A stretch of DNA of 64,000 nt. Source: an uncultured Kiritimatiellota bacterium (GTDB lineage Bacteria; Verrucomicrobiota; Kiritimatiellia; RFP12; DVOR01). The position numbers and the translations under genes were made by a program. Every line of letters starts with the position of its first letter. Positions within the stretch are counted from its first letter, which is position 1. Of the stretch, positions 1 through 15,504 are shown piece by piece. The stretch spans positions 49,309 to 113,308 of the forward strand of contig CALXMV010000002.1 of NCBI GenBank assembly GCA_944389565.1, written 5' to 3'. The notes beneath the pieces are model-generated. The model did not search any database and had not been told where the DNA came from. It was given only the letters and a program-made list of their open reading frames with translations.

Positions 1-734
1 AAGGCGACACCGGCCCGCAAGGCCCCAAGGGCGACCCCGGCGAGGGCGCCGCCGTCACCATCGACACCACGATGCCCGCCACCCCCGCGGACGACCATGT
101 GCCCAGCACGAAGCTGATGGCGACAAGTCTGGACAATATGCCCGGTTTCGAGAGTGCGTATCTGTCGAAGGATCATTCCGCCGACGAGTTGGAAATCGTC
201 GAGGCCGATGGATTCGTCAATGAGGGCGAGGACTTATACGCTATTCTTTTCACGTTCTTGGCATCTGGTATTGATGAGGCAGCACTTTCCAATTTGAAGC
301 TGTCGTACAGAAATGGATCCTATACAAAGGAAACCTCTCCTGTTATTGAAAAACAGATAACTGGCGATTTCTCGGTTACTTTTTTTGTAAATGGAATCAA
401 GAAAAACCAAGTCTTAAGATTCGTAGACAAAAACGGCAATAACAGAAAGCTCAAGTGTTTGGCGGTAAAAAAAACCGAAGACGACCAAATAGCGCTTTAT
501 GTCGAAGGCGAGGAGACGAAAGAAAGCAAGACCTTCGCTATTTATGGATTACAGCACTTTAAGAAAAACACCGAATTGTCGATCGCGGACACTTTCACAG
601 AGTTATACCACGCGCTTATACAATCGGCCACACAGCTTAAGTTTACCCCCGTCGAGCCGCTGGCGGACGGGGCGAACGCGGCCGCCTGCGCGGCCAAGAT
701 CAACGAGATCCTCGCCGTGCTCAAGGGGGCATGA
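1..734 (+). CDS. Tail-fibre-like protein, C-terminal part; the 5' end lies outside the window. Collagen-like G-X-Y repeats are followed by an AT-rich globular C-terminal domain.
   Basis: Frame 3 is open from nt 3 to the TGA at 732-734. Nt 3-50 encode GDTGPQGPKGDPGEG as G-X-Y triplets. Nt ~240-600 fall to ~40% GC against a ~70% background. ORF-track entry 72..734 is the Met-internal part of the same frame. Confidence 0.55.
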   Translation, partial: GDTGPQGPKGDPGEGAAVTIDTTMPATPADDHVPSTKLMATSLDNMPGFESAYLSKDHSADELEIVEADGFVNEGEDLYAILFTFLASGIDEAALSNLKLSYRNGSYTKETSPVIEKQITGDFSVTFFVNGIKKNQVLRFVDKNGNNRKLKCLAVKKTEDDQIALYVEGEETKESKTFAIYGLQHFKKNTELSIADTFTELYHALIQSATQLKFTPVEPLADGANAAACAAKINEILAVLKGA

Positions 735-875: not shown

Positions 876-881
876 ACGTAC

Positions 882-909
882 GATTCACGATTCACCATTC
901 ACCATTCAC
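882..909 (+). repeat. Tandem heptamer array (GATTCAC GATTCAC CATTCAC CATTCAC) followed by GGGG
   Basis: Seen in sequence. It lies immediately upstream of the RBS of the 950..2230 gene. Confidence 0.8.
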
Positions 910-949
910 GGGGCGGCTTTCGCCGCCCGCGCCTGAAAGGAGCGAAGCC

Positions 950-2230
950 ATGCCCACCCTTGAGGAACTGATCGCCGGCACCGAACGCCGCCGCCGCGCC
1001 GAAGACGCCCTGGCCTACGCCCGGGCCACCGGCCAAGACCTCGCCCTGCGCGACATCCCCACCCCCGCCGGCAGCCGCCCCTATCTGGTCGACGCCCAGG
1101 GCGCCATCACCGCGCCCCTCGCCCACGACCGCCCCCTCGCCCCCGAGGAATACGCCGCGCTCGACCGCGCCCTCGGCGCCGCCGGCGATTCACGATTCAC
1201 GACTCACGATTCACGGGGCGGCGGCGAAGCCGACGCCCTCCCCGCCCTCGCCGCCCTCTACGCCCCCGAACGCCGCGCCCGCGCCGTGCCCTACGCCCCA
1301 AGCGCCTACCTCGGCCCGGACGCCCTCGGCGCCCGCCGCGAGGAGGCGATGTGGGCCCGCGCCGCCACGCGCCGCGCCGCCCAGGACCTCCGCGCCGAGC
1401 GCGTCCGCGCCCTCCTGGCCGACGAACGCGCCTACGGCAACGCCCCCTCCGACCGCCAGCGCGCGGCCGCCGAACGCTGGGCCGACGCCCGCGCCCTCAC
1501 CGGCGACACCCGCACCCGCCAGGTCTTCGAACGCCGCGACCGCCTCGCCGCCGAGGCCCTCGCACGCGCCGACCGCCTCCGCGCGCAGGACGTCGCCGCC
1601 GAGACCGCCCGCCAGGCCTCCGCCGACGACCTCGCCGAGGCCATCGCCCAGGCCGACGCCCAGCGCGCCGCCGCCGACCTGGAGCGCCGGGGCACCCTCG
1701 CCGTCGCCCAGGAGGAGACCCGCCGCGCCAAGGCCGCCAACGCGAACGCCCTCGCCCTCGAACGCCTCCGCGGCGAGAACGCCCTCGGCCTCGCCGGCGC
1801 CAACAACGCCTCCTCCGAGCGCGTCGCACAGATCCGCGCCCAGGCCAACCGCGACGTCGCCCTCCTCCAAGGCACCCTCGCCGCCGCCCGCGCACAAGGC
1901 GCCCTCTCCCCCGAGCAGGACGCCGCCTTCAAGCGTGCCGAGACCCTCGTGCGCCTCTCCCAGTCCCTCGCCCGAGGCGGCCTCGACGAGACCGCCCTCT
2001 TCACCCTCGACAACGAGATCGACAACGACAAGACCCTCTCCCCCGAGGAGAAGGCCGCCCGCAAGGCCCAGCTCCGCCAGAACAACCCCGAGGCCGTCTC
2101 CTGGCTCCTCGGCGCCGCCGCCCGCCAGATGGAGGCCGCCGGCCTCCCCGGCATGCCCGCCCCCGGCGCCCCGCCCACCCCGGCGGCACCCGCGCCCGGC
2201 GCCCTCGCCGGCCTCGCCGACTGGAGGTGA
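950..2230 (+). CDS. Ala/Arg/Glu-rich predicted coiled-coil protein of unknown function, in the phage-like region
   Basis: ATG at 950 is preceded by GAAAGGAG at 935-942. It lies in the frame of ORF 731..2230. The composition suggests long alpha-helical coiled coil. An in-frame GATTCAC array sits at 1187-1214. Confidence 0.55.
   Translation: MPTLEELIAGTERRRRAEDALAYARATGQDLALRDIPTPAGSRPYLVDAQGAITAPLAHDRPLAPEEYAALDRALGAAGDSRFTTHDSRGGGEADALPALAALYAPERRARAVPYAPSAYLGPDALGARREEAMWARAATRRAAQDLRAERVRALLADERAYGNAPSDRQRAAAERWADARALTGDTRTRQVFERRDRLAAEALARADRLRAQDVAAETARQASADDLAEAIAQADAQRAAADLERRGTLAVAQEETRRAKAANANALALERLRGENALGLAGANNASSERVAQIRAQANRDVALLQGTLAAARAQGALSPEQDAAFKRAETLVRLSQSLARGGLDETALFTLDNEIDNDKTLSPEEKAARKAQLRQNNPEAVSWLLGAAARQMEAAGLPGMPAPGAPPTPAAPAPGALAGLADWR
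1187..1214 (+). repeat. Tandem heptamer array GATTCAC x4 (third unit GACTCAC) followed by GGGG; the same 33-mer recurs at 5495-5527
   Basis: Seen in sequence. It encodes DSRFTTHDSRG in frame. Confidence 0.8.
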
Positions 2231-2454: not shown

Positions 2455-3342
2455 TTATCGCGCTTGAGGCGCCGGGCAGAAGACGCCGATAAGCGACGTG
2501 TTTGTGATAATTCGCGCAAAACGCTTTTTGCGCATGAACAGGGTCGCCGCATGATGGAGACTTAACGTCAAATCCTGCAACGTCGCGTCTTCCTCGATCA
2601 TCTTGACCGTAAGCCCGGCCTTTTGTGCGGCCTGTGCGGAAATGTGACGGTCGTGCGTTTTGGACGTATCGTGTTGGGCGAAGACGCGCAATACATGGTC
2701 GATACGACTCGCTTTGTCCTCGGCGTCGCACAGCATCCCGGACTCAAGCCAGTCTTTTGAGACCTGGCGCGCCAGCTCCGTGGCTTTTTGGCATTCCCCC
2801 AACAGCGTCATGGGATACTTGCTGATAATCGGTTGCCATAACAACGCCAGATTGGGATTCTCCGCGATATCCTTCTTTGCCTGGGCGAATTCTTCGACGA
2901 TTGCGTCCGTCCGATATCCTCCAAGCGCAGGGTCGATCGGCCCCAGGCAAGAATGTTTGCCCATAAGGATCTCACGGGCGCACATCGCCAACAGCGTGCC
3001 GCACGACATGGCCATATGCGGGATGAACACGGAGATATTCGTGCCAAACACCGACCGTAAATAAGACCCGATGCCCTCGGTTGCAGGCACCGACCCTCCC
3101 GGAGTGTGCAAGAACAGGTCCAACCCGTCCTGCTTCGGCATCCTGTAAATGGCGGACATGAACCCTTCCATATCCGCTTCCTGGATGTTTGAGTCCTCGA
3201 ACCCGAAAAGGAACCCGGAGTAGTAGAGAATCAGGTTGCGCCCACGATGGGTCGCAAACTGATTCATGTACTTCTGCAAGACGTTGGCCACGCCATCCGG
3301 TGGGGTGGCCTCGTTCTGGATTTCGAGATTTGACGGTGCCAT
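2455..3342 (-). CDS. SDH-family (ClpP/crotonase-fold, S49-related) serine protease
   Basis: A minus-strand ORF. The Met at 3342 is preceded by AGGAAG in reverse complement. Motifs LHTPGGSV and HMAMSCGT are typical of the serine-dehydrogenase proteinase family. GC is lower than in flanking DNA. Confidence 0.6.
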   Translation of the reverse strand: MAPSNLEIQNEATPPDGVANVLQKYMNQFATHRGRNLILYYSGFLFGFEDSNIQEADMEGFMSAIYRMPKQDGLDLFLHTPGGSVPATEGIGSYLRSVFGTNISVFIPHMAMSCGTLLAMCAREILMGKHSCLGPIDPALGGYRTDAIVEEFAQAKKDIAENPNLALLWQPIISKYPMTLLGECQKATELARQVSKDWLESGMLCDAEDKASRIDHVLRVFAQHDTSKTHDRHISAQAAQKAGLTVKMIEEDATLQDLTLSLHHAATLFMRKKRFARIITNTSLIGVFCPAPQAR

Positions 3343-3353: not shown

Positions 3354-3551
3354 CTAGCGTTCGGAGACGACCGGGCTCTTCGCGTAGAATTGGTAAGGGG
3401 ACGGGCCGTGCGGGTCGAGCCCGGCACGTCGAAAAGCCTCGTCGCGAAAGACGAACGCATGGCCGGGCATGCGTGACTGGATATCCATCAATCGCAACAC
3501 CGTCTTGACGCGCACGTCTTTCAGAACGCCATTCGATACAAGCCTTTTCAT
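3354..3551 (-). CDS. Small hypothetical protein (65 aa) immediately upstream of the protease and coupled to it
   Basis: In reverse complement, GAAGGGAG plus a 6-nt spacer precedes the ATG at 3551. Its stop lies 12 nt before the protease start. No recognisable motif. Confidence 0.35.
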   Translation of the reverse strand: MKRLVSNGVLKDVRVKTVLRLMDIQSRMPGHAFVFRDEAFRRAGLDPHGPSPYQFYAKSPVVSER

Positions 3552-3696: not shown

Positions 3697-6600
3697 GTGC
3701 GGGGCGCCCGCGCCGGGCCCATCCCCCCTCATACCACCACCCGGCGCGGGCGCCCCGCCTTCTCACACACGGGAGCGAACGCAGTGAGCGACACCGACAC
3801 CACCTTCCAGGAACTCTTCCACGTCATCGAGCGCGACACCGGCGCCGAGCGCTACGTCCCCGTCGCCCAAAGCCGGGACTACGCCCGCGCCATGCGCGAG
3901 CAAGGCCGCGACTTCGACCTCCTCGAGGACTGGGAGTCCGACCAAGGCGAGCGCGTCGCCGTCAACCCCGAGAAGCGCGAGGCCTTCCTCCAGGCCGCCC
4001 GCGAGCGCGGCATCGCCGTCCGCCAAAAACGCCCGATGTGGGACGGCGCCACCACCCTCTGGACCGACGGCCAGGGCGGCGCGATCGCCGTCGGCCAAGC
4101 CAAGCGCGAGGCCTACCAGGCCGCCGCCAAGGAACGCGGCCTCGCCGTCGCCGAGATCGGCCCCGAGCCCACCTTCCTCGACCCCGAGGAGGCCGACAAG
4201 GAACTGATGGGCCGCGAGCACGGCGGCTTCGACTGGGGCTCCCTCCTCGACGGCCTCAAGTTCCCCGCACGCCTGGCCGGCTCCGCCGCGCAGGGCATCC
4301 TCGCCCTGCCCACCCTCGCCGCCCTCGGCGGCGAATACGCCGCCGCCAAGGCCGGACTCATCGAGGAAGGCGCGCACCCCGTCTCCGGCGTCGGCATGAA
4401 GGCCATCGACGCCATCGAGCGCGCCAAGCCCGAATACACCTTCGCCAAAGACCAATCCCTCCCCGGCCGGGCCGCCAACGCCCTCATGGGCGGCCTCGAA
4501 TTCATGGGCGCGCTCGCCGCCGGCGGCGCCGCCGAGCAAGGCATCCGCGCCGCGGCCGGGGCCGCCACCCGCGGCGCCGGCGCCCTCGGCGCCACCCGCC
4601 AGGCCGCCGAAAGCATCGCCCGCGGCGGGGCCGCCGCGGCGGACGACGCCACCGCCCAGGCCGCCCGCGCCGCCGCGCCCAAGGCCACCGCCGCCGAGCA
4701 GAGCGCCATGCGCCAGGCCCTCGCCGACGTCGCCACCGCCATCCCCCCCGGCACCCCCGCACAGGAAGCCGCCAAGACCCTCGGCGAGGCCTACCTCCGC
4801 CGCCTCCCCGCCGCCCAATTCCGCGAGGGCGCCCGCCAATTCGCCCAGGCCGCCCTCCGCCCCGGCCTCTGGAAGGCAGCCCCCGTCGCCCTCGGCGCCC
4901 TCGACGTCCACCGCGCCTACGCCCAGGCCGGCCACTCCGAGGACAAGGCCATGCTCGCCACCCTCGGCGACGCCGCCCTCGGCTACCTCCTCGTCTCCCT
5001 CGGCGACGGCTTCGGCGCCTTCGGCGGGGCCGCGGCCACCACCGGCGGCACCCGCTTCTTCCGCGCCCTCGCCGGCAACGCCGCGCGCGACCCCAACCTC
5101 AGGGCAGCCCTCGCCGCCGGCGCCGCCAACGTCCTCGGCTCCGCCGCCACCGGCGCCGGCCAGGCGGCCGGCCACCTCGCCATCCTCCGCGGCGCCCTCG
5201 GCGAGGAAGAAATCTCCGACGCCGACCTCCTCGGCGCCGCCGCCCTCGGCGGCCTCTTCGGCGCCGTCCCCGCCGCCGCCCAGGCCATCCGCCCCATCCG
5301 CCAGGCCATCGCCGAGGACATCGCCACCGCCGCCGCCCGCGCCCAAGCCGCCGCGCAACGCGCGGCGCGTGAATCGCCGACCGTGAATCGTGAATCGCTC
5401 ACCTGGCGCCCGCTCGACGCCACCGACCCCAGCGCCCCGCCCGACACCCCGCAGGGGCCAAACGCGGGCGGCGTGTGGCGCAGCCCTACCCAACGCGATT
5501 CACGATTCACGACTCACGATTCACGGGCCATCGCGCCAAGCGCGATGGCCGCCCCCGTCGCCGTCAGCGACGCAGGCGACATCCTCTTCCGCTCCGGCGC
5601 CATCTGGCGCGCACGCACCGGCGACCTCCTCATGCCCTCGGGCGCCGTCGTCTCCCCCCAAGGCGACATCCTCACCGCCGCCCCACCGCCCGCGCCGCAA
5701 CCCCAGCAACCCACGCCCGCGCAGGACGACCTCTTCGGCCTCCCCCCGGACCCGGCGCAACCCCCCGCGCCGGCGGCGGGGCAAGACCCGGCCGGCACGC
5801 TCGCGCTCTACGACCTGCTGCGCGAGGCCGACGTCCAGGTGCACAACGTCCCGATCGGCCAAATCCAGGTCAACCGCGACATCAAGCAATTCAAGGCCGA
5901 TGCCGACCCCGTCACCGGCGTCGTCGCCGGCGAGGAACTCGGCGGCGAGTACCAAGCCGTCCCCGCCAAGCCCATCCTCCTCCTCGAGAAGCTTGACGGC
6001 AGCCTCGAGGTCGTCACCGGGCGCCACCGCCTCGACCTCGCCCGCCGCAACAACCTCCCCACCATCCCCGCCAACATCATCCGCATGGCCGACGGCTGGA
6101 CGCTCGACATGGCCCGCGCCCTCGACGCCTACGACAACATCCTCGACGAGAAGGGCTCCGACCAAGACTTCATCGACTTCTTCCGCCGCGCCCGAATCGA
6201 CCGCGCCACCGCCGAGGCCAAGGGGCTCGTCACGCGCAAGAAAGGCCGCGACGCCTTCGACGTCGCCGAATACGCCTCCGAGGACCTCTACGCGCTGGCC
6301 ATGGGCGACGCGCGCATGGACGCCCAGACCGCCGCCGCCATCGCCCGCGAGGCCCCCGTCCCCCGCGCCGCCGGCCAGCGCGCCCAAGGCTGGAACCAGA
6401 ACATCCAGGCCGCCGTCTCCCGCGCCGTCCTCGAGGAGGGCCTCCGCGCCGACGACGCCGCCATCATGGCCCGCTCCCTCCGCCAGGCCTACGCCCAGCG
6501 CATCCGCGAGCGCGGCCTCGAACAGCTCGACCTCTTCGGCAACGACGACACCTTCATCCTCGCCATGACCGTCGAGGCCAAGTTCGCCGCCCAGCAGATC

Positions 6601-9600
6601 CGCCAGATCGACTTCGACCTCCGCGGCCTCAAGACCGCCGCCGGCAAACAATCCGGCAACCTCGCCGCCCGCGACACCCTCATCCGGAAATACCGCCTCA
6701 AAGGCCCCGAGGACCGCGAGGGCATGGCCCGCGCCATCGCCGCGCTCGAGGAGCAGAAACGCCGCTGGCAGAACTACCACACCGACCCCGAGCTCGCCGA
6801 GCTCGCCCACGCCCACGCCAAACGCGCCCTCCGCCTCGAGGCCATCGAGCAAGAGGCCGCCGCCGAGGCGACGCAAAGTGTCGCCCGTGAATCGCCCGAG
6901 GGGCAAAGCCCCGCGCCGCAGCCCGCCCCCGCCGCCGAAGCGGCACCCGCCAATCAGCAGATCGGCCAATCGGCGAATCAGCCGGCGGCGCGAAGCGCCG
7001 AGCCGCGCGTGCTCCCCGCCGCGACCATGCGTGACGCGAAAGCCCACGTCGACAAGCTGGCCGAGGACAAGGTGGAGGTCTCCACGCTGAACGGCGACAC
7101 CCTCCGCTTCTCCAAGCAAATCAAGAAAGCCTACTCCAAGGCCGCCGAGAACCAATCCGACGACCGTGCCGCGCACTGGGCCGCCGTCGCCGCGCTCGAA
7201 CATCTGTGTCAAAGCGCGGACCACATCTTCAAGGAGCCGCCCCGGAACGGCAGCGCCGACATCGCCTACTATCACAAGTACGCCGCGCCGTTCGTCCACG
7301 GCGGGGTTGGCTACATCGCCAAGATCACGGCCAAGGAATATCCCAGGCAGACGGCCCGCGGTGTTTACTCCGTCGAGGCCGTCTCCCTCGAACGAATCGG
7401 CGACCGGGGAATCCATGCCTCCATCGCAAACGGACAGACGCTCGACCCGGTCGCCACTGATAAGATAGCCCAAATGGCCGAGCGCGTCAAGCGCTTTCTC
7501 GACCAGCCCGCCCTCGCGCCGGAAGCCGCCCCCATCGCGGCGGCGCCCGAAAGCCAAGCCGCCACCCTCCCCCTCGAGCCGCCCCCCAAACGCCCCCCGC
7601 TGGGCACCTCCCGCGCCCTCATCGCCTGGCAGCGCGCCCACGCCCTCCCCGGCCTCCCGCCGGACGCCGTCGTCCTCATCCAATACGGCGACTTCGTCGA
7701 GACCTACGAGAGCGACGTCCCCGCCCTCCGGGCCGTCACCGGCGCCGAGCCCACCACGCGCTACGGCCGCACCCTCGTCGGCGCACCCAAATCCGGACTC
7801 CCCGCCATCCTCGAGGCCCTCGCCGCCCAAGGACGAACCGTCGCCCTCGTCCCCCGCACCCTCGACCAAGCCGAGATCCGCACGCCCCCCGCCACCCCTA
7901 AGACGCCCCTCACCCAGGATCCGCCCAGCGCGCCGACGGACTCCCCCGCACGCCCCTACTGGGGCCCCAACCGCCCACTCCCCGACACCGGCAAACCCCG
8001 CATCGACGTCACCATCGGCGGGGACCCCACCTACACCGTCGAGGATTCCGGCCTCGACCCCTCCGCGCCCCTCCCAGACGACACCGTCGTCTGGGAGACC
8101 GCCACCCTCACCGGCGCCGGGCACGCCGTCGCCTGGCCCGTGCGCGCCTACGGCAAACCCACCGGCATCGACGGCGCCGCGCTCATCGGCGAGAGCGGCA
8201 TGCGCGCCATCCGAGAGGCCCTCGCCAAAGGCGCCGCCCTCGCCAAGGAACGCACCGCGCTCTACGCCGGGATCCCCGCCAACGAAAACGCGAAGGCCCG
8301 CGACAGACGCCTCGCACGCACCGCCGAGATCGAGGCGGGCGAGGCACAGACCGTCCAAGCCATCGAGGCCGTCCTCGACCGCGTCCGCGAACCCGCCGCG
8401 CGCTACGGCACCCCCGCCGTCGGCCACCTCGTCCACGGCAAGGACAAGGACGGCGCCATGCGCCTCTGGCGCATCGTGGAGCGCGGCAGCCAAAACTCCG
8501 ATACCCTCCTCCCCGACGGCACCGTCGTCCACACCCGCCAGCTCGACGGCGATTCGCACCAACGCTGGGTCACCCGCCCCGACGGCACCGACACCCCGCG
8601 CGAGACCTGGTGGCGCACCCGCAACGCGGACGGCACCGCCAACCCCTTCACCTCAATGGACGCCGACTTCTACGGCGACGCCCCCCAAACGCCCCCCGTC
8701 GAGGCGCCCGGCGGCACCCTCGCCAGCCCCGCGCCCGACGGGCCCTCCCTCGCCGCCTACGGCCTCACCGACGAACAGCTCAACGGCCCCGGCTTCCGCC
8801 CCCTGGCCAAGGGCGAGAACTTCGACACCGTCACCCAAGGCACCCTCGCCCGGCGCAACCAAACCGCCCGCAACGCGCGCCTCGGCACCGAAGCCGCCAT
8901 CCGCGGACGCAACGACGCCAGGAAGATTGGCCACACCGCAAAAGAAGGCGAGAACATTCGCGCCCACCAATACGCAGCCAAAAACGTCCTGAAACTCTAC
9001 GAACAGGCAGAGGTCGCCGTCCGCTCCGACAACTACAAGACCCACGGCAAAGGTAGCGCCCCCAAGACCTACGCCCGCCTCTTCGCCCCCTTCGTTTTCC
9101 AGGGGCGCACCTACGTCGCCGTCATCGCCCAATACGAGGCCAGGCAAAACGGCATCCACGCCATCGAGGTCCTCGACACAATCGAGGCGGGCCGCCTCCC
9201 GGAAGTCACCTCCGGCGAAACCCAACGGGACGCACGGCCGACCGAGAGGCAACCCGCCTCAAACACCCACAGTGTCCCACAAACTGTCCGTCCTGTCAAT
9301 CCCGCCACGCGCTCCGAACTCACCGAGCCCGTCATCGACCGCCTCATCGGCGAAAGCAAACGGCTCAACCCCCGCGTCCTCACCCTAGGCGAGGACGGCA
9401 CCCTCGCCGAGACCCCCACCGACGCGGCCGCCGTCCTCGCCGACGTGCGCGCCGCGGTGGCCCGCTTCGAGGAACGCGCCCGCGCCATCGCCAAATACCG
9501 CCCCGAGCCCGACCCCGCCGCCCTCGGCCGCTTCACCTTCCCCGCCCTCCCCGGCGCCACCCTCGACGTCGTCGATGGCCGGGCCACCCTCACCCTCCCC

Positions 9601-12600
9601 CCCGGCCACACCTTCCCGCAAGCCGCCGCCCTCGTCCAGGCCGTCCGCGCGCAACTCCCCGCCACCACGCGCCTCTCCCTCCAGGGCACCCGCAGCCGCT
9701 TCCTCGGCGCCTACGCCAACCCACCCGCCGCACAGCCTGCCGCCCCCCGCCCGGCCGAGACGTCCGTCGCCCCGTCAGGGGCGGGCGATTCGCAATCCGC
9801 GATTCACGATTCACGGGGCAGTGGGGCCTCCGGCCTCGCCGCCTACCGCGGCAGCCACCGCGCCCCCAGCCGCGCCGACATCGCCGGCGACGAGGACGAC
9901 ACCACCGTCCCCCTCCGCGACTGGGCCAAGATCGTCCCCGGCGACACCTTCACCCACCCGGAACGCTACTTCGGCGCCAACGCCCTCGCCCTCGAATCCG
10001 CGCGCCTCATCGCCCGGGCGTTGGCCGGCAAGGCCAAAACCATCACCGTCTACCGCGCCGTCCCCGCAGGCCTCCCCGAAGCGCGCCTGAACGACGGCGA
10101 CTGGGTCACCCCCAGCAAAGCCTACGCACAGACCCACGGCCGACACGCGCTGGGCGGCGACTACCGCATCCTCGCTCAGCGCGTCGCCATCGATGACCTC
10201 TTCTGGAACGGCGACAGCCCCGCCGAGCTCGGCTACGACAGCGGCCGCAACCCCGCCCCCGACACCCTCGCCAACCCCGCGCCCGGCGCGCCCGCCCCGC
10301 AAGGGGCACAGCCAATCGGCCAATCCGCCAACCCGCAAATCAGCCAAGCCGGCGCCTATCCCATGCGCGGGGAGGTGACGCCGCACCCCGCCAACCTCGG
10401 CGGCGCGCCAGGCAGTCCTGCCCGCGAGCACGCCCGCATCCCCCTCGCCCTCCCCGACCTCGTCCTGCTCTACAAGGAGCTCACCGAGGGCGCCGTCCCC
10501 CGCGTCATCCACAACCGCGCCAACATGGCCAGCGACCTCGGGCGCTACCGCGTCGGACAAAACGCCATCGAGCTCGCCGGCCGCGTCTTCGGCATCGTCG
10601 ACGACTCCGACCTCGCCACCCTCAAGGAGCGCCTCCGCGCCCGCGGCCTCTTCCGAAACGAGGACCCCGCCTGGTGCCTCACCATGCCCCGCGCCGCCAT
10701 CGCACGCGAGAAGCAGATCTCCGAGGAACGCCTCGCCCGCGAGCTCCGCGCCCTCATGACGCGCCGCGTCCGCGCCATGCACGACGACCTCCCCGCCGCC
10801 AAGGTCATGGCCCACGAGCTCTGGCACCTCATCGACGACCAGGACGGCGGCCTCCGCGGCCGCGGCGACCTCGTCGGCCACCTCGCCGCCCTCAAACACG
10901 CCGCCGCACAGGCCCTCCCCGAGCCCGCCTTCGCCGACCAGCCCGCCCTCGTCGCCGAGGCCAAAGCCTTCATCCGATGGTGGCGCGGCATCGGCCAAGA
11001 CGAGCCCTACTTCGACAAGCCAGAGGAGATGTACGCCGAGATCGGCGCCGCCTACTTCTGTGCCCCAGAGGACCTCAAAGCCCGCGCCCCCCAATGCTTC
11101 GCCGCCTGGGACGCCGCCCTCGCCCGCCACCCCGCCGCCCTCGATGCCGCCCAACGCGCCCGCGCCTACATCGCAACCGGCGGGCGCGACAAACGCCTCG
11201 CCAACGAGCTCGCCGCCACCTGGGGCCGCGAATACCAAGTCGCCCTCCGCCGCTACCGCAACGCCACCGAAGGCTTCGACAACTCCGCCGCCGCCTGGTG
11301 GGACCGCATCCTTGCCGCCCTCTGGGACGACCGCGCCCCAGCCCTCAACCTCCTCAAACGCGCCGTCCGCGCCGCCAAGGCCGAAAACAAACGCAACGCC
11401 AAGGACGACCCCGTCGCCGCCGAGACCCTCGCCGAGGCCGACAAACGCCTCGACGCCATGCTCGCCCACGCCACGCTCAACCACGTCCTCTACCGCCGCA
11501 AAGGCCCCAACAACGCCCGGCTCTACCTCGCCGACGTCAAGGGCGACTTCCTCCGCGCCCTCAACGCCATCGGCCAAGACCAAGACCTCGCCCGCACCTA
11601 CGTCGAGCTCTACGCCACCTACCATCGCATCATCGAGCTCGGCGGCCGCCCCATGCCCCTGGGCCAAACCCCCGCCTCCGCCCGCGCCGGCCTCCTCTAC
11701 ATGCTCCACGACGTCGGCCCCAAAACCTACCGCGCCATCGCGCGCGCCTGGGGCGTCTTCCGCGCCCTCTACGAGCGCGACGTCATCGAACGCCCCGCCA
11801 CCGCCGAGCTCCTCGGCCCCGACTTCGTCAACCTCATGCGCCAAAACGCCCACTACGTCACCTTCCGCCACGCCCCCACCCCCGAAACCCTCGCCCAAGC
11901 CGACCGGCGCGCCCACGAAAACCCCCTCGATGAAGCCGCCCGGCGCCTCCTCAAAACCGCCAACCCCGCCTCCGACGTCGCCAAGATCCTCAAACCCCTC
12001 AAAGGCTCCCACGAACCCATCCAAAACCCCCTCCTCGAGACCATGCGCACCGCCGTCGCCATCATCGTCGCCGCCGAGCGCAACCAAATTGTCCTCGACT
12101 GGGTCCGCGCCCTCCGCGAGCTCCACGCCCCCGACATCCTCGAGCGCGACGGCGCCCACACCACCAACAACCCACGCCTCGGCACCATCGACTTCTGGGA
12201 AAACGGCCAACGCAAAACCCTCATCGTCCCCCGCCGCGTCGCCGCCGGCTTCAACGACACCACCCCCGATTGGCTCCGCTCCATCACCGCCGCCACCCGC
12301 ATCCTCAACGCCGCCCTCACCACCAACAACCCCGGCTTCGTCCCCATCGCCCAAGCCCGCGACCTCTACTCCGCCGCCTACAACATCCGCGGCCTCCACC
12401 GCTGGCCCCTCCACTGGATCCCCGCCGCCGGTGACGCCGCCGCCCTCCTCACCCAATTCATCCCACCCGCCGCCATGCGCGCCATCGGCGAGCACCCCCT
12501 CGGCCGCCTCCTCCTCAACCCCAACACCATCGAATACTGGACCAGCTTCGGCAACCGCATGGCACGCCTCATCCACTCCGGCGACTTCCGCGGCGAGCTC

Positions 12601-15504
12601 GAACGCGCCCGCCAAGACCGACTCGCCGGCCGCGAGGCCCAAGCCCAACAGCGCGAATACCTCGTCCAGATGGCCCGCCGCGCCCTCCAAGACGGCATCC
12701 TCCTCAACATGGTCCAATACCGAAAGCTCACCTACGACGCCTCCGGCTGGAAAGCACTCTTCGACGAATACCACCTCGACTTCGACGAGCCCCCCCTCGA
12801 CCCCGAATCCCCCCTCCGCAAAACCCTCCTCGCCACCCCACGCGCCATCCGCGCCCTCTGGAACGCCACCGGCACCGCCTCCGAAATCGCCTCCGCCACC
12901 ACCAAACTCGCCGTCTACGCCTACCTCAACCAACCCCTCACACCCCCACCCGCCGCCACCCCCGCGCGGCGTGAAACGGAAATCGTGAATCGTGAATCGC
13001 GAGAAACGGGAGGGGTCGCGCGCCCCGCCCCCGCCGCGCCCCTCGCCAACCCCGCCCCCATGCGTCTGGCCAACGGCCCCGGCGGACTCCGCCTCGTCGA
13101 AGGCGCCGCCCCGCAGTCCAAGGACATCTTTGGCATGGACCCGGCCCAGATCGACGCCCTCGCCGCGCTCGCCGACCAAGCCGACGCCCTCCCCCCGGAC
13201 ACCCCCTGGGAGGACGACGCCCTCCGCCAACTCGCCCGAAAAGCCCAAATCGCCCGCGAACGCGCCAAGGCCGACGCCGACCCCCACTGGTACCACGCAC
13301 TCCCCTGGGAACGCCGAGCCCAAGCCGCCGTCGCTCAAACCCGCGCGACCATGGGCCGTGGCACCGACAACATCGACACCCCCGAACGCGACGCGCTCCG
13401 CCGCCGGATCGCCGAGCGCCTCTACAACGGCGGCTCCGCCGAGAAAGGCCGCAAACTCTTCGTCGTCATGGGCCTCCCCGGCAGCGGCAAATCCTCCGCC
13501 GTCGTCAAGAACCTCAAAGCCGAGGTCGGCGACCTCGTCGAAGTCGACGCCGACGAGGCCAAAACCCACCTTCCCGAGTTCCAAGGCGGTAAAAACGCCG
13601 ACATGGTGCATACCGAATCCGGCAAAATCGCCGAGGACTTCCTGCTGCGCGGACTCTGTTTCCCAAACGGCGACAACATCGTCTTCCCAACCGTCGGCAA
13701 AAACACCCAAAAGCTCGAACACCTCTTGCGCGAAGCCAAAGAAGCCGGCTACGCCGTCTACCTCTACAACGTCCGCATCCCCATCGCCGAATCCGCCAAC
13801 CGCGCACTCCGCCGCTACGTCGAGACCGGACGCTTCGTCCCCCCGGACTACATCGTCGACGCCGTCGGCGACAAACCCGACCGTACTTTTGCTATACTCA
13901 AAGACAGAAAGGACCTAGTCGATGGCTACGCAGACCTCTCCAACGACGTCCCCTTCGGCGCCCGACCCCAAACCCTGGAAACATCCCGTCGACCCCCTGC
14001 AGGACTGGGACAACGAGGACTATCTGTATCTCTGGATCCTCGCCAAGGAATACCTGGCCAAACAGCTCGGCCGGGAACCGACCTCGGCGGAGGTGCGCGC
14101 GGAAATGGGCTGGTAGGCGACACCCTCGCCCTCCCCGCCCCCGGCGCCGCCCCCGACGCCCCACGCGGCGCAGGCCAAGCCCCCGGGCCCGACAACCCCA
14201 TAATCTCCGACGCCGACGCCGACGCCAAGGCCATCCTCGAATCCATCGTCTGGCGCGCCACCGTCCTCGCCGGCGACCCCACCTTCGACATCCGCGGCAT
14301 CCTCCTCACCCCCATCGAGCTCGTCTTCGGCCCCTTCATCAACGCCGCCCTCAAAGGCACCTTCCGCTTCGTCCAGACCATCGCCGACACCCTCCCCGAC
14401 GCCCGCCCCGACGGCCGCCCCCGACGCCGCACCCCACTCCTCAACGCCGCCTCCTACGCCGGCAAGATCGGCGCCACCCTCGCCCAACGCCTCATCCTCA
14501 CCGCCCTCTCCACCGGCGGCCTCGTCACCGCCGCCGCCCTCGCCCTCTTCCGCGCCGCCACCGGCAACCCAAACGCCACCGAGCAAGACCTCATGGACTC
14601 CCCCCTCGGCCCCGCCGTCCGCGGCGCCGAACGCCTCGGCCAAGGCTACCGCAACATCTCCCCCTACCTCCTCCAAAACTACAACACCCTCCCACTCTAC
14701 GTCGACGGCGACATCACCATCGCCCTCACCCTCCCCATCGCCGACGAAGAGCGCTTCCCCATCCTCCTCCTCGACGCCACCCTCAACAAACTCGGCTTCC
14801 CCTGGACCCCCAACCCCGCCACCGGCCCCGCCGACGCCGCCGCCAACCTCATCGGCGCCCCCGTCAACTCCCTCCGCGGCCAAGGCACCCTCATCCAATA
14901 CCTTCACCTCCTCTCCCCCTTCCTCTTCAACTACAACCCCTACGACAACTTCCGCGGCCACAAAATCCTCCCCGAGGCCGAATTCGCCGCCCGCTGGGAC
15001 AACCCCGCCGCCGCCGCCACCATCGCCAACCGCCTCATCGAATCCACCCCCCTCGCCATCGCCTGGAAACCACCCCAGCCCCTCACCCCCGAGCAACAAG
15101 CCTCCCTCGACCGCACCCCCTGGCTCGGCCGCTTCCACGCCACCCTCACCCGCGCCCCCCTCCTCTCCACCATCGCCGGCCGCCTCATCCGCGTCCAGAT
15201 CGGCGGCGAGGCCGACCGCATCCGCCGCCTCCGCCGCCTCGACCAGCAACAAGCCCTCGCCGTCCGCCTCCTCGCCCGCCAGAACTACGCCCTCACCCAG
15301 CTCGGCCTCCCCCCGCAGATCCCCCAAGACCTCCCCCCCGAATACGCCAAGGACTACTTCGAGGCCTGGTTCGCCCGCCAAGACGAGCACCTCGCCGCCC
15401 GCTCAAGCGCCCACCGCCGCAAACGCCTCATCCAAGACGCCCTCGCCATCCGCGACCCCAACCTCCGCGACCGCGCCCTCCGCGCCCTCCGACACCTCCC
15501 CTGA
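3697..15504 (+). CDS. Giant multidomain 'polyvalent' protein of 3,935 aa. Contains a ParB-like nuclease domain (nt ~5805-6110), a twice-repeated unknown ~90-aa domain (nt ~7108-7410 and ~8920-9210), an HExxH zincin-like motif (nt ~10812-10826) and a zeta-toxin-like P-loop kinase domain (nt ~13380-13905).
   Basis: A single stop-free frame of 11.8 kb, far beyond chance. ParB signature VTGRHRLDLARRNN. Metallopeptidase motif AHELWH. Walker A GLPGSGKS followed by a zeta-toxin-like region. A GTG at 3697 begins the ORF. An alternative GTG at 3784 has a better RBS (GGGAG at 3771-3775). Confidence 0.75.
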   Translation: MRGARAGPIPPHTTTRRGRPAFSHTGANAVSDTDTTFQELFHVIERDTGAERYVPVAQSRDYARAMREQGRDFDLLEDWESDQGERVAVNPEKREAFLQAARERGIAVRQKRPMWDGATTLWTDGQGGAIAVGQAKREAYQAAAKERGLAVAEIGPEPTFLDPEEADKELMGREHGGFDWGSLLDGLKFPARLAGSAAQGILALPTLAALGGEYAAAKAGLIEEGAHPVSGVGMKAIDAIERAKPEYTFAKDQSLPGRAANALMGGLEFMGALAAGGAAEQGIRAAAGAATRGAGALGATRQAAESIARGGAAAADDATAQAARAAAPKATAAEQSAMRQALADVATAIPPGTPAQEAAKTLGEAYLRRLPAAQFREGARQFAQAALRPGLWKAAPVALGALDVHRAYAQAGHSEDKAMLATLGDAALGYLLVSLGDGFGAFGGAAATTGGTRFFRALAGNAARDPNLRAALAAGAANVLGSAATGAGQAAGHLAILRGALGEEEISDADLLGAAALGGLFGAVPAAAQAIRPIRQAIAEDIATAAARAQAAAQRAARESPTVNRESLTWRPLDATDPSAPPDTPQGPNAGGVWRSPTQRDSRFTTHDSRAIAPSAMAAPVAVSDAGDILFRSGAIWRARTGDLLMPSGAVVSPQGDILTAAPPPAPQPQQPTPAQDDLFGLPPDPAQPPAPAAGQDPAGTLALYDLLREADVQVHNVPIGQIQVNRDIKQFKADADPVTGVVAGEELGGEYQAVPAKPILLLEKLDGSLEVVTGRHRLDLARRNNLPTIPANIIRMADGWTLDMARALDAYDNILDEKGSDQDFIDFFRRARIDRATAEAKGLVTRKKGRDAFDVAEYASEDLYALAMGDARMDAQTAAAIAREAPVPRAAGQRAQGWNQNIQAAVSRAVLEEGLRADDAAIMARSLRQAYAQRIRERGLEQLDLFGNDDTFILAMTVEAKFAAQQIRQIDFDLRGLKTAAGKQSGNLAARDTLIRKYRLKGPEDREGMARAIAALEEQKRRWQNYHTDPELAELAHAHAKRALRLEAIEQEAAAEATQSVARESPEGQSPAPQPAPAAEAAPANQQIGQSANQPAARSAEPRVLPAATMRDAKAHVDKLAEDKVEVSTLNGDTLRFSKQIKKAYSKAAENQSDDRAAHWAAVAALEHLCQSADHIFKEPPRNGSADIAYYHKYAAPFVHGGVGYIAKITAKEYPRQTARGVYSVEAVSLERIGDRGIHASIANGQTLDPVATDKIAQMAERVKRFLDQPALAPEAAPIAAAPESQAATLPLEPPPKRPPLGTSRALIAWQRAHALPGLPPDAVVLIQYGDFVETYESDVPALRAVTGAEPTTRYGRTLVGAPKSGLPAILEALAAQGRTVALVPRTLDQAEIRTPPATPKTPLTQDPPSAPTDSPARPYWGPNRPLPDTGKPRIDVTIGGDPTYTVEDSGLDPSAPLPDDTVVWETATLTGAGHAVAWPVRAYGKPTGIDGAALIGESGMRAIREALAKGAALAKERTALYAGIPANENAKARDRRLARTAEIEAGEAQTVQAIEAVLDRVREPAARYGTPAVGHLVHGKDKDGAMRLWRIVERGSQNSDTLLPDGTVVHTRQLDGDSHQRWVTRPDGTDTPRETWWRTRNADGTANPFTSMDADFYGDAPQTPPVEAPGGTLASPAPDGPSLAAYGLTDEQLNGPGFRPLAKGENFDTVTQGTLARRNQTARNARLGTEAAIRGRNDARKIGHTAKEGENIRAHQYAAKNVLKLYEQAEVAVRSDNYKTHGKGSAPKTYARLFAPFVFQGRTYVAVIAQYEARQNGIHAIEVLDTIEAGRLPEVTSGETQRDARPTERQPASNTHSVPQTVRPVNPATRSELTEPVIDRLIGESKRLNPRVLTLGEDGTLAETPTDAAAVLADVRAAVARFEERARAIAKYRPEPDPAALGRFTFPALPGATLDVVDGRATLTLPPGHTFPQAAALVQAVRAQLPATTRLSLQGTRSRFLGAYANPPAAQPAAPRPAETSVAPSGAGDSQSAIHDSRGSGASGLAAYRGSHRAPSRADIAGDEDDTTVPLRDWAKIVPGDTFTHPERYFGANALALESARLIARALAGKAKTITVYRAVPAGLPEARLNDGDWVTPSKAYAQTHGRHALGGDYRILAQRVAIDDLFWNGDSPAELGYDSGRNPAPDTLANPAPGAPAPQGAQPIGQSANPQISQAGAYPMRGEVTPHPANLGGAPGSPAREHARIPLALPDLVLLYKELTEGAVPRVIHNRANMASDLGRYRVGQNAIELAGRVFGIVDDSDLATLKERLRARGLFRNEDPAWCLTMPRAAIAREKQISEERLARELRALMTRRVRAMHDDLPAAKVMAHELWHLIDDQDGGLRGRGDLVGHLAALKHAAAQALPEPAFADQPALVAEAKAFIRWWRGIGQDEPYFDKPEEMYAEIGAAYFCAPEDLKARAPQCFAAWDAALARHPAALDAAQRARAYIATGGRDKRLANELAATWGREYQVALRRYRNATEGFDNSAAAWWDRILAALWDDRAPALNLLKRAVRAAKAENKRNAKDDPVAAETLAEADKRLDAMLAHATLNHVLYRRKGPNNARLYLADVKGDFLRALNAIGQDQDLARTYVELYATYHRIIELGGRPMPLGQTPASARAGLLYMLHDVGPKTYRAIARAWGVFRALYERDVIERPATAELLGPDFVNLMRQNAHYVTFRHAPTPETLAQADRRAHENPLDEAARRLLKTANPASDVAKILKPLKGSHEPIQNPLLETMRTAVAIIVAAERNQIVLDWVRALRELHAPDILERDGAHTTNNPRLGTIDFWENGQRKTLIVPRRVAAGFNDTTPDWLRSITAATRILNAALTTNNPGFVPIAQARDLYSAAYNIRGLHRWPLHWIPAAGDAAALLTQFIPPAAMRAIGEHPLGRLLLNPNTIEYWTSFGNRMARLIHSGDFRGELERARQDRLAGREAQAQQREYLVQMARRALQDGILLNMVQYRKLTYDASGWKALFDEYHLDFDEPPLDPESPLRKTLLATPRAIRALWNATGTASEIASATTKLAVYAYLNQPLTPPPAATPARRETEIVNRESRETGGVARPAPAAPLANPAPMRLANGPGGLRLVEGAAPQSKDIFGMDPAQIDALAALADQADALPPDTPWEDDALRQLARKAQIARERAKADADPHWYHALPWERRAQAAVAQTRATMGRGTDNIDTPERDALRRRIAERLYNGGSAEKGRKLFVVMGLPGSGKSSAVVKNLKAEVGDLVEVDADEAKTHLPEFQGGKNADMVHTESGKIAEDFLLRGLCFPNGDNIVFPTVGKNTQKLEHLLREAKEAGYAVYLYNVRIPIAESANRALRRYVETGRFVPPDYIVDAVGDKPDRTFAILKDRKDLVDGYADLSNDVPFGARPQTLETSRRPPAGLGQRGLSVSLDPRQGIPGQTARPGTDLGGGARGNGLVGDTLALPAPGAAPDAPRGAGQAPGPDNPIISDADADAKAILESIVWRATVLAGDPTFDIRGILLTPIELVFGPFINAALKGTFRFVQTIADTLPDARPDGRPRRRTPLLNAASYAGKIGATLAQRLILTALSTGGLVTAAALALFRAATGNPNATEQDLMDSPLGPAVRGAERLGQGYRNISPYLLQNYNTLPLYVDGDITIALTLPIADEERFPILLLDATLNKLGFPWTPNPATGPADAAANLIGAPVNSLRGQGTLIQYLHLLSPFLFNYNPYDNFRGHKILPEAEFAARWDNPAAAATIANRLIESTPLAIAWKPPQPLTPEQQASLDRTPWLGRFHATLTRAPLLSTIAGRLIRVQIGGEADRIRRLRRLDQQQALAVRLLARQNYALTQLGLPPQIPQDLPPEYAKDYFEAWFARQDEHLAARSSAHRRKRLIQDALAIRDPNLRDRALRALRHLP
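5369..5396 (-). repeat. GTGAATC heptamer array (reverse orientation): GTGAATC gccgacc GTGAATC GTGAATC
   Basis: Seen in sequence. It encodes RESPTVNRES in a linker of the giant gene. Confidence 0.8.
5497..5524 (+). repeat. GATTCAC x4 array, identical to 1187-1214
   Basis: Seen in sequence. Forms an inverted pair with 5369-5396 across 100 bp. Confidence 0.8.
9787..9814 (+). repeat. Heptamer array GATTCGC AATCCGC GATTCAC GATTCAC followed by GGGG
   Basis: Seen in sequence. It encodes a linker with the sequence GDSQSAIHDSRG. Confidence 0.75.
12971..12998 (-). repeat. Heptamer array, reverse orientation: GTGAAAC GGAAATC GTGAATC GTGAATC
   Basis: Seen in sequence. It encodes RRETEIVNRESRE. Confidence 0.75.
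13887..13898 (+). promoter_or_regulatory. Extended -10-like element TTTTGCTATACT internal to the giant gene, 23 nt upstream of the embedded ORF
   Basis: An exact 12-mer copy of the element at 28701-28712, upstream of the gene at 28722. It fits the TGnTATACT extended -10 pattern. The surrounding region is locally AT-rich. Confidence 0.4.
13922..14116 (+). CDS. Embedded (overprinted) small ORF of 64 aa, in the +1 frame relative to the giant gene
   Basis: ATG at 13922 is preceded by AGAAAGGAC. GC3 is ~80% in this frame, whereas the giant-gene frame falls to ~38% over the same stretch. The product has ordinary globular composition (W, Y, K and L). The segment LAKQLGREPTSAEVRAEMG resembles sigma-70 region 3.0 (…EMGREPTPEELAERM…). 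Confidence 0.35.
   Translation: MATQTSPTTSPSAPDPKPWKHPVDPLQDWDNEDYLYLWILAKEYLAKQLGREPTSAEVRAEMGW

Follow-up and report, generated by a model that had tools for sequence, protein, structure and literature searches.

A polyvalent protein combines, in a single chain, between two and fifteen domains of unrelated function (Iyer et al., 2017), and known examples are P1 DarB/DdrB, the N4 virion RNA polymerase and Helicobacter jhp1044. The domains listed for the class by Iyer, Burroughs, Anand, de Souza, and Aravind (2017) include LPD3, MutS-I, ParB-type domains, zincin-type peptidases and zeta-like kinases, and to each of these we can liken a module of the giant protein described here. The giant protein also resembles the class in having many unrelated effector domains in a single giant chain, in the virion-gene neighborhood of its gene and in a module content that is mosaic between relatives. 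It differs in that the MPTase-PolyVal and ddrB-ParB models give no match and five of its modules (A, E, G, H, and K) have no assigned family, and its gene has junction DNA in which conserved tandem arrays with units of 7 and 8 bp are accompanied by hairpins and a common box. No description of junction arrays with hairpins and a box was found in Iyer et al. (2017), where the word "linker" is absent from the text, or in a literature search. The protein itself belongs to a known class and it is the junction feature that is possibly new.

The DNA analyzed, referred to as the window, is a 64,000-nt stretch from an uncultured gut Kiritimatiellota bacterium (assembly GCA_944389565.1, contig CALXMV010000002.1, positions 49,309–113,308, forward strand). 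A single frame without stops runs from 3697 to 15504 on the plus strand (3935 codons), as the earlier note on this DNA had claimed, and its high-G+C coding signature is unbroken, with GC3 at 0.77–0.95 and GC2 the lowest position in each 200-codon block. Because this pattern holds in each block, the frame is coding throughout, rather than one left open by chance at a genomic G+C of 70%; the giant ORF is a genuine gene that is coding end to end. The probable start is GTG 3784, with GGGAG 8 nt before it, giving a protein of 3906 aa, the same length that a separate gene prediction for the source contig gives. In the protein about 11 modules are strung between two conserved end modules, A at the N-terminus and K at the C-terminus, with Pro/Ala-rich linkers of the kind the earlier note had described, and homologues were searched for module by module. 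The gene and its modules are as follows.

3784..15504, plus strand, giant polyvalent protein gene, 3906 aa from GTG 3784 (maximal ORF from 3697)
3784..5367, plus strand, module A (aa 30–557), Gly/Ala-rich amphipathic segments, without a family match
5797..6789, plus strand, module B (aa 701–1031), ParB/Srx-fold domain and helical domain, with TGRHR at aa 774–778
7030..7347, plus strand, module C (aa 1112–1217), LPD3 copy 1 (PF18798, 40.5–46.7 bits against a cut-off of 27)
7645..7860, plus strand, module D (aa 1317–1388), marginally MutS domain I-like (PF01624, 19.5 bits against a cut-off of 20.6)
8854..9141, plus strand, module F (aa 1720–1815), divergent LPD3 copy 2 (PF18798, 21.5 bits, under the cut-off)
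9838..10254, plus strand, module H (aa 2048–2186), matching phrog_2579 ("ParB C-terminal domain", E 1.5e-20)
10336..12933, plus strand, module I (aa 2214–3079), zincin-like, with HELWH at 10813–10827, EMYAE about 68 residues downstream and then a large helical region
13075..14055, plus strand, module J (aa 3127–3453), zeta-toxin-like P-loop kinase with Walker A K3265, catalytic Asp D3286 and V3333
14251..15501, plus strand, module K (aa 3519–3935), the family-defining C-terminal module, with one hydrophobic segment (aa 3599–3618)

A single coding frame thus holds a ParB/Srx fold, two LPD3 copies, a marginal MutS-I, an HExxH motif and a zeta-like kinase. The motifs read previously from the translation lie at aa 774–785 (VTGRHRLDLARR), 2372–2377 (AHELWH) and 3259–3267 (GLPGSGKSS), and in the domain search that the earlier note had proposed, Pfam Zeta_toxin and LPD3 pass their cut-offs; searches of the NCBIfam and PADLOC libraries gave no match. 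Module B had been called a ParB-like nuclease. Its top 44 Foldseek matches are all ParB, Noc, KorB, Spo0J, Srx, SbnI, or PadC (best E 2e-5), and the fold alignment, of about 230 columns, takes in the NTPase domain and the DNA-binding helical domain after it. There is in addition a match to the SbnI profile, one to phrog_723 at E 1e-3 only, and a transitive link through a homologue of the module (P0007) that carries PF02195, but neither Pfam ParBc nor ddrB-ParB matches module B, even at E ≤ 1 on the isolated segment. Module B is therefore like the ParB/Noc/KorB CTPase-type proteins and the ParB/Srx superfamily in its fold, including the helical domain, and in a G-x-x-R type motif (TGRHR, which appears as DGHHR in P0008), and it differs from them in being embedded in a giant protein and unmatched by ParBc, with no ParA among the neighbors examined and no recognized parS. 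The ParB part of the earlier label holds while the nuclease part was overstated, since it is the fold alone that is seen.

The duplicated domain of about 90 aa that had been described as unknown is indeed present in two copies but is a known one, Pfam LPD3 (40.5 and 21.5 bits); the copies have diverged to the extent that a pairwise comparison finds only a 38-residue core in common, at 37% identity. The proposed zincin draws its support from conservation: HELWH and the downstream E are invariant in close homologues of module I and the HExxH...E pattern is retained in 21–25 of 30 family giants. Module I gives a weak match to Peptidase_M90 and none to the Pfam MPTase-PolyVal model, and a Foldseek search with its AlphaFold model, which is of low confidence (pLDDT 54), gave no match with E < 1. 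Used as single sequences, modules B, H, and I have no significant PDB sequence match, and module H has no Pfam match. Module A is kept in two relatives (L030 and L034) and is also readable in P0012, P0013, and P0015.

Module J is, from its sequence, a zeta-family P-loop kinase with the Walker A Lys and the catalytic Asp. It matches PF06414 (Zeta_toxin) at E 3.1e-15, with 56.6 bits against a cut-off of 22.3, and K3265 aligns with zeta K46 and D3286 with zeta Asp67, which corresponds to Asp66 of PezT and is the catalytic base of the zeta/PezT kinases (PMC3062530). Together with a "D-x-D...hP.F" stretch, these features are shared with the epsilon/zeta and PezAT systems. Module J differs from them in lying inside a polyprotein, in having no epsilon/PezA antitoxin, since, within the ORF, no separate small gene stands in front of the module, and in the residue at the position of zeta Thr118, which contacts the UNAG beta-phosphate. 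V3333 stands at that position, in an alignment that is weak here (about 17 bits) and has a Thr one residue earlier, and a T-to-V exchange at the equivalent position renders PezT non-toxic (PMC3062530). Because Val replaces the UNAG-contacting Thr, UNAG is no more than a candidate substrate of module J, and the similarity to the polynucleotide kinase Pnkp1 is about as strong as that to zeta. The kinase family proposed in the earlier note is accordingly borne out but the label of UDP-GlcNAc kinase toxin went too far. Nor is a zeta kinase lacking an antitoxin unusual in such a protein, as had been thought, since zeta-toxin-like kinases have already been described, both within polyvalent proteins and as parts of MuF fusions (Iyer et al., 2017). 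The departure from the UNAG-kinase zeta toxins at a residue required for toxicity makes the substrate question a worthwhile one.

The family to which the giant protein belongs was traced to gut MAGs of Kiritimatiellota and Lentisphaerota, where 12 loci show the A-B...I-K architecture. Module K has 45 cluster representatives among 1.84e9, nearly all of them C-terminal in proteins of 2000–3569 aa. Relatives bear ART-PolyVal, LPD23, and RadC domains, the module order is permuted in P0003 and P0005, and the homology of P0001–P0004 to module I stops just upstream of linker 6 (aa 3029–3079). The neighborhood of the giant gene in the window is as follows.

1..734, plus strand, 3' part of a collagen-like (G-X-Y) tail-fiber-like gene, truncated at the window start (273 aa in the complete contig; the repeat is matched by Pfam Collagen and by many PHROG tail-fiber families)
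950..2230, plus strand, 426-aa gene between the fiber and protease genes, Ala/Arg/Glu-rich and coiled-coil-like, with heptad array 2 in frame
2455..3342, minus strand, ClpP-like SDH-type serine protease, 295 aa (PF01972, E 1.4e-21; phrog_11747, E 8.5e-75)
3354..3551, minus strand, 65-aa ORF upstream of the protease, without a Pfam, PHROG, or PADLOC match

The tail-fiber-like gene and the ClpP-fold protease named as neighbors by the earlier note are thus both present, and the source contig also has an Avd gene. A 696-aa gene, the protease and the 426-aa gene are shared neighbors; at L037 homologues of the last two lie beside the giant gene, and at L035 the giant gene is directly upstream of a scaffold-like gene and an SU10-type major capsid protein gene. 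Together with LPD3 and Zeta_toxin above cut-off, the ParB/Srx fold, the HExxH...E pattern and the ART-PolyVal, LPD23, and RadC domains of relatives, this capsid context supports the conclusion, first suggested in the earlier note, that the giant protein is a member of the polyvalent class carried by a phage-like element. No T4SS genes were seen. By analogy with the cases reviewed by Iyer et al. (2017), the virion probably carries the giant protein and ejects it along with the DNA. Early targets of its enzymatic modules would then be host DNA, nucleotide or cell-wall precursors, and proteins, and the chain may be cut into working pieces by the zincin or by the neighboring ClpP-like protease. 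In the window the giant gene abuts chromosomal genes, no capsid or terminase genes are seen in the 8 kb available to its left, and no tRNA or obvious att feature is found at the right boundary. Because the gene adjoins chromosomal and not capsid genes, and since 4.3 kb to the left the contig comes to an end, the element, which is incomplete in the window, may be a remnant. This boundary position, the presence of a zeta-type module, the L036 gene lying directly after yidC and the occasional host capture of polyvalent proteins noted by Iyer et al. (2017) would also suit a multidomain toxin, domesticated by the host or secreted, that resembles polymorphic toxins or serves in defense and is not delivered by a virion. 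We consider this very improbable, as no signal peptide or secretion-system domain was detected, the PADLOC and NCBIfam searches were empty, no immunity gene follows the giant gene, and the neighbors are phage-like (collagen fiber, Avd, SDH protease, and the scaffold and capsid genes of L035).

A feature absent from the earlier note is that five of the eight linkers between the modules are encoded by DNA repeats. The repeats are arrays of four GATTCAC units on either strand, usually followed by a hairpin, and degenerate CCAATCAG arrays, and they are accompanied by a common "LANPAP" box. The repeat units are of 7 and 8 bp, which are not multiples of three, and there are usually four of them. They are arranged as follows.

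882..929, plus strand, heptad array 1 (GATTCAC GATTCAC CATTCAC CATTCAC) with hairpin GGGGCGGCtttcGCCGCCC; intergenic, ahead of AAGGAG and the ATG that begins the 426-aa gene
1187–1214, plus strand, heptad array 2, in frame within the 426-aa gene (…DSRFTTHDSR…)
5369–5396, minus strand, linker 1, heptad array 3, units 3–4 degenerate
5497–5524, plus strand, linker 1, heptad array 4, with a perfect 11-bp hairpin at 5526–5550
6887..6981, no single strand, linker 2, a lone minus-strand heptad (6887–6893) with hairpin and a degenerate octamer array at 6950–6981 (…NQQIGQSANQP…)
9787..9840, plus strand, linker 4, heptad array 5 (GATTCGC AATCCGC GATTCAC GATTCAC) with hairpin
10266..10349, plus strand, linker 5, LANPAP box at 10266–10286 and a degenerate array of five octamers at 10312–10349 (…PIGQSANPQISQ…)
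12971..13060, no single strand, linker 6, minus-strand heptad array 6 (12971–12998, units 3–4 degenerate) and a second LANPAP box at 13040–13060

Matches to a heptad pair number 13 as against 0.24 expected, all of them within 880–13000, and the linkers hold seven of seven arrays yet make up only 12.6% of the giant ORF. Of 11 heptad arrays, 10 are followed by a hairpin (p = 2e-5). Fifteen arrays in 103 kb of polyvalent genes compared with two in 168 kb outside rule out a genome-wide REP- or MITE-type repeat. Because the minus-strand arrays are degenerate exactly where a perfect array would make a TGA, we infer that there has been selection for an open ORF. The heptad unit is also a GANTC site; the chromosome is depleted of such sites, whereas the element is not. 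The arrays in the window are short (3–4 units) and imperfect, and two samples of the window's own lineage have no difference in unit number over 12 kb.

The same arrays are found at the same junctions in L030 and L036, although these relatives are only 37–58% identical, and L030 also has the heptad (minus strand) and octamer arrangement of linker 2. In relatives, three-unit arrays coincide with frame breaks between modules, and one added unit gives back a single ORF in L036, L027, and L010. L010 and L011, with three and four octamers, respectively, are 97.6% identical and one octamer unit is the sole indel in 1.7 kb; in L011 the frame between modules is offset a second time, by 1 nt, outside the repeats. 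Upstream of the LANPAP box the two are non-homologous, and the module order differs on the two sides of the box. The arrays are confined to a high-G+C sub-clade and are missing from the lower-G+C members of the family.

Based on these data, we propose that the best explanation overall, and a likely one, is that of a phage-type polyvalent protein with junction elements acting as hot spots. The elements are most likely sites of unit gain and loss and of recombination, by which effector modules would become joined, separated or rearranged. The window's copy would represent the all-fused state, which the imperfect arrays probably keep fairly stable; short, imperfect arrays of 3–4 units argue for a low rate of switching. 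Several hallmarks of contingency loci are seen, namely intragenic tandem repeats, a unit not divisible by three, and differences in unit number that change the frame in relatives, and the gene shares with simple-sequence contingency loci and with cassette shuffling in polymorphic toxin and modular adhesin genes the non-triplet units, the frame-changing unit differences and the common junctions that flank exchangeable modules. It differs from contingency loci in that its arrays are very short (3–4 units), often imperfect, and placed between modules rather than as an on/off switch at the 5' end of the gene. A bolder extension, which we offer tentatively and regard as rather doubtful, is that arrays, hairpins and LANPAP boxes together are junction switches by which a phage population, through the gain or loss of single repeat units or recombination between the common boxes, continually generates variants of the injected polyprotein that differ in effector set and order.

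Against the hot-spot proposal, the split genes of relatives could be plain decaying prophage genes. Taken further, the whole element would be a decaying prophage remnant in which the arrays are mutation-prone simple sequence and the frame breaks of relatives are ordinary pseudogenization. The chromosomal neighbors of the gene and the missing capsid and terminase genes to its left fit such decay, as do the several relatives with split genes, the non-repeat offset in L011 and the constancy of the two own-lineage samples, which, with the short and imperfect arrays, also counts against the hot spots. Nevertheless, we think decay unlikely: 11.8 kb stays open with a full coding signature, the minus-strand arrays degenerate exactly where a perfect copy would be TGA, which indicates selection for the ORF, arrays and box persist at syntenic junctions between deeply diverged relatives, and a repeat unit is the only indel in the 1.7 kb compared between L010 and L011.

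The absence of arrays from the lower-G+C family members and the wide spread of GATTCAC arrays in unrelated metagenomic contexts also speak against the hot-spot reading, and the latter fits a protein-binding role at least as well. The arrays could be operator, centromere-like or packaging sites for a sequence-specific DNA-binding protein, candidates being module B and the 65-aa ORF, with the arrays no more than tolerated in linkers and the effect on frame incidental; we regard this as possible, if not the explanation we favor. Binding units of 7 bp have precedents in box A of P1 ParB (ATTTCAC) and in the heptads of the omega protein. Array 1 is intergenic and closely precedes a ribosome-binding site, both strands bear arrays, the exact heptad is kept across proteins only 37–58% identical, its GANTC sites are spared in the element, module B aligns with both the NTPase and the DNA-binding helical domains of ParB/Noc/KorB, and GATTCAC recurs in unrelated phages and metagenomes, mostly as four units. 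Conversely, the 65-aa ORF matches no DNA-binding family, no partner ParA was seen, module B is family-wide while the arrays occur only in the high-G+C sub-clade, and the excess in viral contigs is modest, since permuted-heptad controls are found there too (1 and 3 versus 15 contigs, in about five groups). Binding sites would also leave unexplained both the correlation of octamer copy number with frame and the breakpoint at the LANPAP box.

Further ideas were considered. GATTCAC arrays in unrelated phages are weak as proof of a common binding protein given the matches to permuted controls, and an omega repressor (the small ribbon-helix-helix protein of the zeta operon) acting on the heptads lacks protein support, as the 65-aa ORF has no family match, and is retained only within the binding-site reading. 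Programmed ribosomal frameshifting does not apply, as GATTCAC is not a slippery X XXY YYZ sequence and the minus-strand and intergenic copies cannot act in the sense mRNA. A DGR target site, considered because of the nearby Avd gene, is not compatible with arrays far shorter than variable regions and variation that is not adenine-specific. Neither the giant protein nor its neighbors have a relative at any of the 100 viral and metagenomic loci tested, a set made up of GATTCAC-array loci along with the control and octamer ones. An octamer array also lies in a provirus of an isolate genome (L043) that is unrelated to the giant-protein family.

The known polyvalent class is extended by these data to gut phages of Kiritimatiellota and Lentisphaerota, and they define a small family of giants of 2000–3600 aa with two conserved, uncharacterized end modules and several unassigned middle modules. 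The gain and reshuffling of domains in polyvalent proteins have been known in outline only, and here there are conserved junction DNA elements with frame-shifting units and a box at a breakpoint. If the junction elements are functional, the long-noted mosaicism of polyvalent proteins becomes directly testable, and if they are indeed junction switches, they would constitute a phase-variable, shufflable anti-host arsenal in a single gene.

The frame at 3697-15504 (+) contains no stop over 3935 codons. Because DNA of about 70% G+C often gives long ORFs by chance, we examined codon-position composition, and in 20/20 blocks of 200 codons GC3 is 0.77-0.95 and GC2 is lowest; the single frame is therefore coding from end to end. 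That eleven modules share a frame would also be unexpected were they separate genes. The gene probably starts at GTG 3784, 8 nt 3' of GGGAG. The source contig (ENA ERZ24773550, NODE_298, 68,349 nt) yields, in an independent gene call, an identical 3906-aa product with LPD3 and Zeta_toxin recorded, and the gene occurs in a second sample with 2 mismatches and 0 gaps across 12 kb. The single giant ORF claimed in the earlier note is thus borne out by the stop-free frame, the coding signature throughout and the agreeing gene call. GC skew is strongly negative over most of window 1-16000 (-0.18 to -0.35, a C-rich coding strand) and weaker at 2001-4000 (-0.085); the skew of the first 16 kb is far more pronounced than that of most of the chromosomal part.

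The product belongs to the phage-type polyvalent proteins described by Iyer et al. (2017), as had been proposed from the sequence; the assignment is supported by LPD3 and Zeta_toxin in Pfam, a ParB fold, the family and a phage-type neighbourhood in a relative. The Pfam matches are as follows, with residues counted from the maximal ORF start at 3697.

aa 3253-3390, Zeta_toxin, E 3e-15, above cut-off
LPD3 ("large polyvalent protein-associated domain 3") copy 1, above cut-off
LPD3 copy 2, below cut-off
MutS domain I, just under cut-off
HELWH region, Peptidase_M90, weak match

LPD3, MutS-I, ParB-type domains, zincin peptidases and zeta-toxin-like kinases are all listed for polyvalent proteins (Iyer et al., 2017; PMC5512222), and the zeta-type module that the earlier note called unusual is therefore a documented feature. 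Its "duplicated unknown domain" is indeed duplicated, the LPD3 pair being old, divergent copies, and belongs to a known Pfam family. The ParB module gives no match to Pfam ParBc; one of its homologues, at 35% identity, carries PF02195, a profile of the module matches the ParB/Srx protein SbnI weakly on the TGRHR core, and the top 44 structural matches of the module's AlphaFold model, whose core is confident, are ParB, Noc, KorB, Spo0J, sulfiredoxin, SbnI and PadC. A ParB/Srx fold is established, so that of the "ParB-like nuclease" the fold holds and the nuclease label was overstated.

The kinase module retains the Walker A lysine K3265 and D3286 (equivalent of the catalytic Asp67), and Val3333 occupies the Thr118 position of zeta toxins. 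In zeta toxins Thr118 is a contact residue for the beta-phosphate of UNAG, and PezT with Val in its place is non-toxic (PMC3062530). With Val3333 at this site and a resemblance to the polynucleotide kinase Pnkp1 about equal to that with zeta, the suggested UDP-GlcNAc (UNAG) specificity went too far; we class the module as a zeta-family kinase and assign it no substrate. The AlphaFold model of the putative zincin module has a pLDDT of 54 and its structural search gave no matches. Close homologues without exception keep HELWH and a Glu some 68 residues further downstream; across 30 wider-family giants, HExxH-(59-73)-(F/Y)AE is present in 21 and HExxH alone in 4 more, and the motif is plainly lost in 5.

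With one genome scanned per species, 12 related loci were recovered. Every one is in a Kiritimatiellota or Lentisphaerota MAG of animal-gut origin, and several share the "BRZ_" sample prefix of the source contig. When the modules are mapped onto these loci, the framework A-B(ParB)...I(zincin)-K stays constant and the middle part varies. Among 1.84 billion proteins only 45 cluster representatives contain the C-terminal module K, nearly all of them 2000-3569 residues long with the module at their C-terminal end, and two module-K relatives carry ART-PolyVal, LPD23 and RadC. In one relative (L035) a scaffold-like gene and an SU10-type major capsid gene follow immediately downstream of the giant gene. 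The 696-aa gene, protease and 426-aa gene of the source contig also adjoin the giant gene in other genomes. The tail-fibre-like gene and ClpP-fold protease noted earlier were recovered as a collagen-like fibre gene and a ClpP-like SDH protease. To the right lie chromosomal genes (LysM, FtsW/RodA, PEP-CTERM, Rho); the defence libraries PADLOC and NCBIfam gave no matches. Outside the window, the source contig carries a DGR gene.

L001:15711-16088, about 2.4-2.7 kb left of the window start, Avd, DGR accessory gene (PF05635, E 6e-39; phrog_3206)

Avd is divergent from the 696-aa gene, and the contig ends 11 nt past it. A template repeat and reverse transcriptase are expected beyond an Avd gene, and the assembly break probably falls on the TR/VR repeat. 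Five short contigs from other samples (L004-L008), about 90% identical to the protease region (equivalents of window 1485-4638), all end at similar positions on both sides, and the end of L009 coincides exactly with heptad array 2 (window 1188), which suggests that the flanks of this region are strain-variable or repeat-tangled. The chromosomal part holds a second very large gene, without an NCBIfam match.

53456-60115 (+), 2219-aa gene, GC3 0.92
53256-53269 (-), octamer-like CCAATCTGCCAATC, about 190 nt upstream of that gene

The linker peptides SRFTTHDSR, VNRES and IGQSANQP are translated DNA repeats. Within 880-13000 there are, besides a lone heptad, six arrays of four GATTCAC units (4 on the + strand, 2 on the - strand); one array is intergenic, one is inside the 426-aa gene and the remainder are in giant-gene linkers. 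Heptad-pair matches number 13 against 0.24 expected, and the 48 kb of chromosome right of the giant gene contains no array. Two degenerate arrays of the octamer CCAATCAG lie in further linkers; all 7 intragenic repeat elements fall in linker, which is 12.6% of the ORF. A perfect - strand heptad array would give TGA in every frame, and both - strand arrays are degenerate at exactly those units whose change keeps the ORF open. In 10/11 copies (window and relatives) the heptads are followed after 1-2 nt by a stem-loop whose sequence is specific to the copy, and these stem-loops are stabler than other segments of the genes concerned (combined p = 2e-5). The 21-nt LANPAP box (ACCCTCGCCAACCCCGCNCCC) is found at two junctions of the giant gene and, nearly identical, in relatives. 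Every GATTC or GACTC heptad unit is a GANTC (CcrM/HinfI) site; GANTC is depleted in the chromosomal part (15505-64000; 61 observed where base composition predicts about 142) and not in the element (1-15504; 49 observed, about 38 expected).

Heptad and octamer arrays recur at matching junctions in relatives with zincin modules 37-58% identical to the window copy. L030, for example, has heptad(-) and octamer after module B, a degenerate octamer before the zincin and heptad(+) after it. Counted over all loci, polyvalent genes hold 15 arrays in 103 kb and the DNA outside them 2 in 168 kb. Arrays are absent from lower-G+C family members, and 45 wider-family representatives show no array peptide footprint. 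Beyond the family, GATTCAC arrays are frequent in unrelated metagenomic DNA (>120 contigs, 3-23 units, mode four, mostly without hairpin), none of these loci being related to the giant-protein family; permuted-heptad controls give a few viral matches too. In one group of unrelated IMG/VR phages (L012, L014, L015, L020, L022-L024) a primase-like gene is separated from a methylase and terminase cluster by a GATTCAC x4-6 array, which is immediately followed by a ribosome-binding site; copy number varies between related contigs, and several contigs begin 87-88 nt before the array, a hint that a genome end, or a site for packaging or regulation, may lie here. The provirus of one isolate genome has an (A/C)CAATCAG x7 array at the 5' end of an unrelated gene (L043:4030-4090), which means that the octamer motif, like the heptad, is not unique to the family.

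Comparison of relatives ties the arrays to frame and module changes. Three-unit arrays coincide with between-module frame breaks in L036 (heptad, I|K) and in L027 and L010 (octamer, J|I), and one added unit regains a single ORF each time. As L027 and L010 probably belong to one lineage, this leaves two independent cases plus the L010/L011 pair, and since one unit added or removed can repair any frame break, this rescue carries modest weight. L010 and L011 are 97.6% identical downstream of the LANPAP box, with one octamer unit as the sole indel and a further 1-nt, non-repeat offset in L011; upstream of the box they share no homology, one carrying a zeta module and the other a G-like module. Module order also differs: G-zeta-zincin in P0005, G-zincin in P0003 and zincin-zeta in the window copy. 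L027 and L029, from the same MAG (BRZ_EK bin27), are two paralogous polyvalent gene copies, L027 split at its three-unit octamer array and the other in a single frame with a degenerate array. The arrays are short, imperfect in the window, and do not differ in unit number between the two samples of the window lineage (12 kb compared). The junction elements are real, conserved and tied to polyvalent genes, and they go together with frame changes and recombination breakpoints; they may be programmed switches, sites bound by a protein, or hot spots that are merely tolerated.

We propose that gain or loss of repeat units, together with box-mediated recombination, may fuse, uncouple and reorder modules, with the window copy as the all-fused state. 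By analogy with reviewed precedents (PMC5512222), the giant protein would be packed in the capsid and ejected with the DNA, its enzymatic modules would act on the host early, and it might be processed by the zincin or the adjoining protease. As a polyvalent protein it adds a member to a known class, and the junction repeats provisionally make it a variant.
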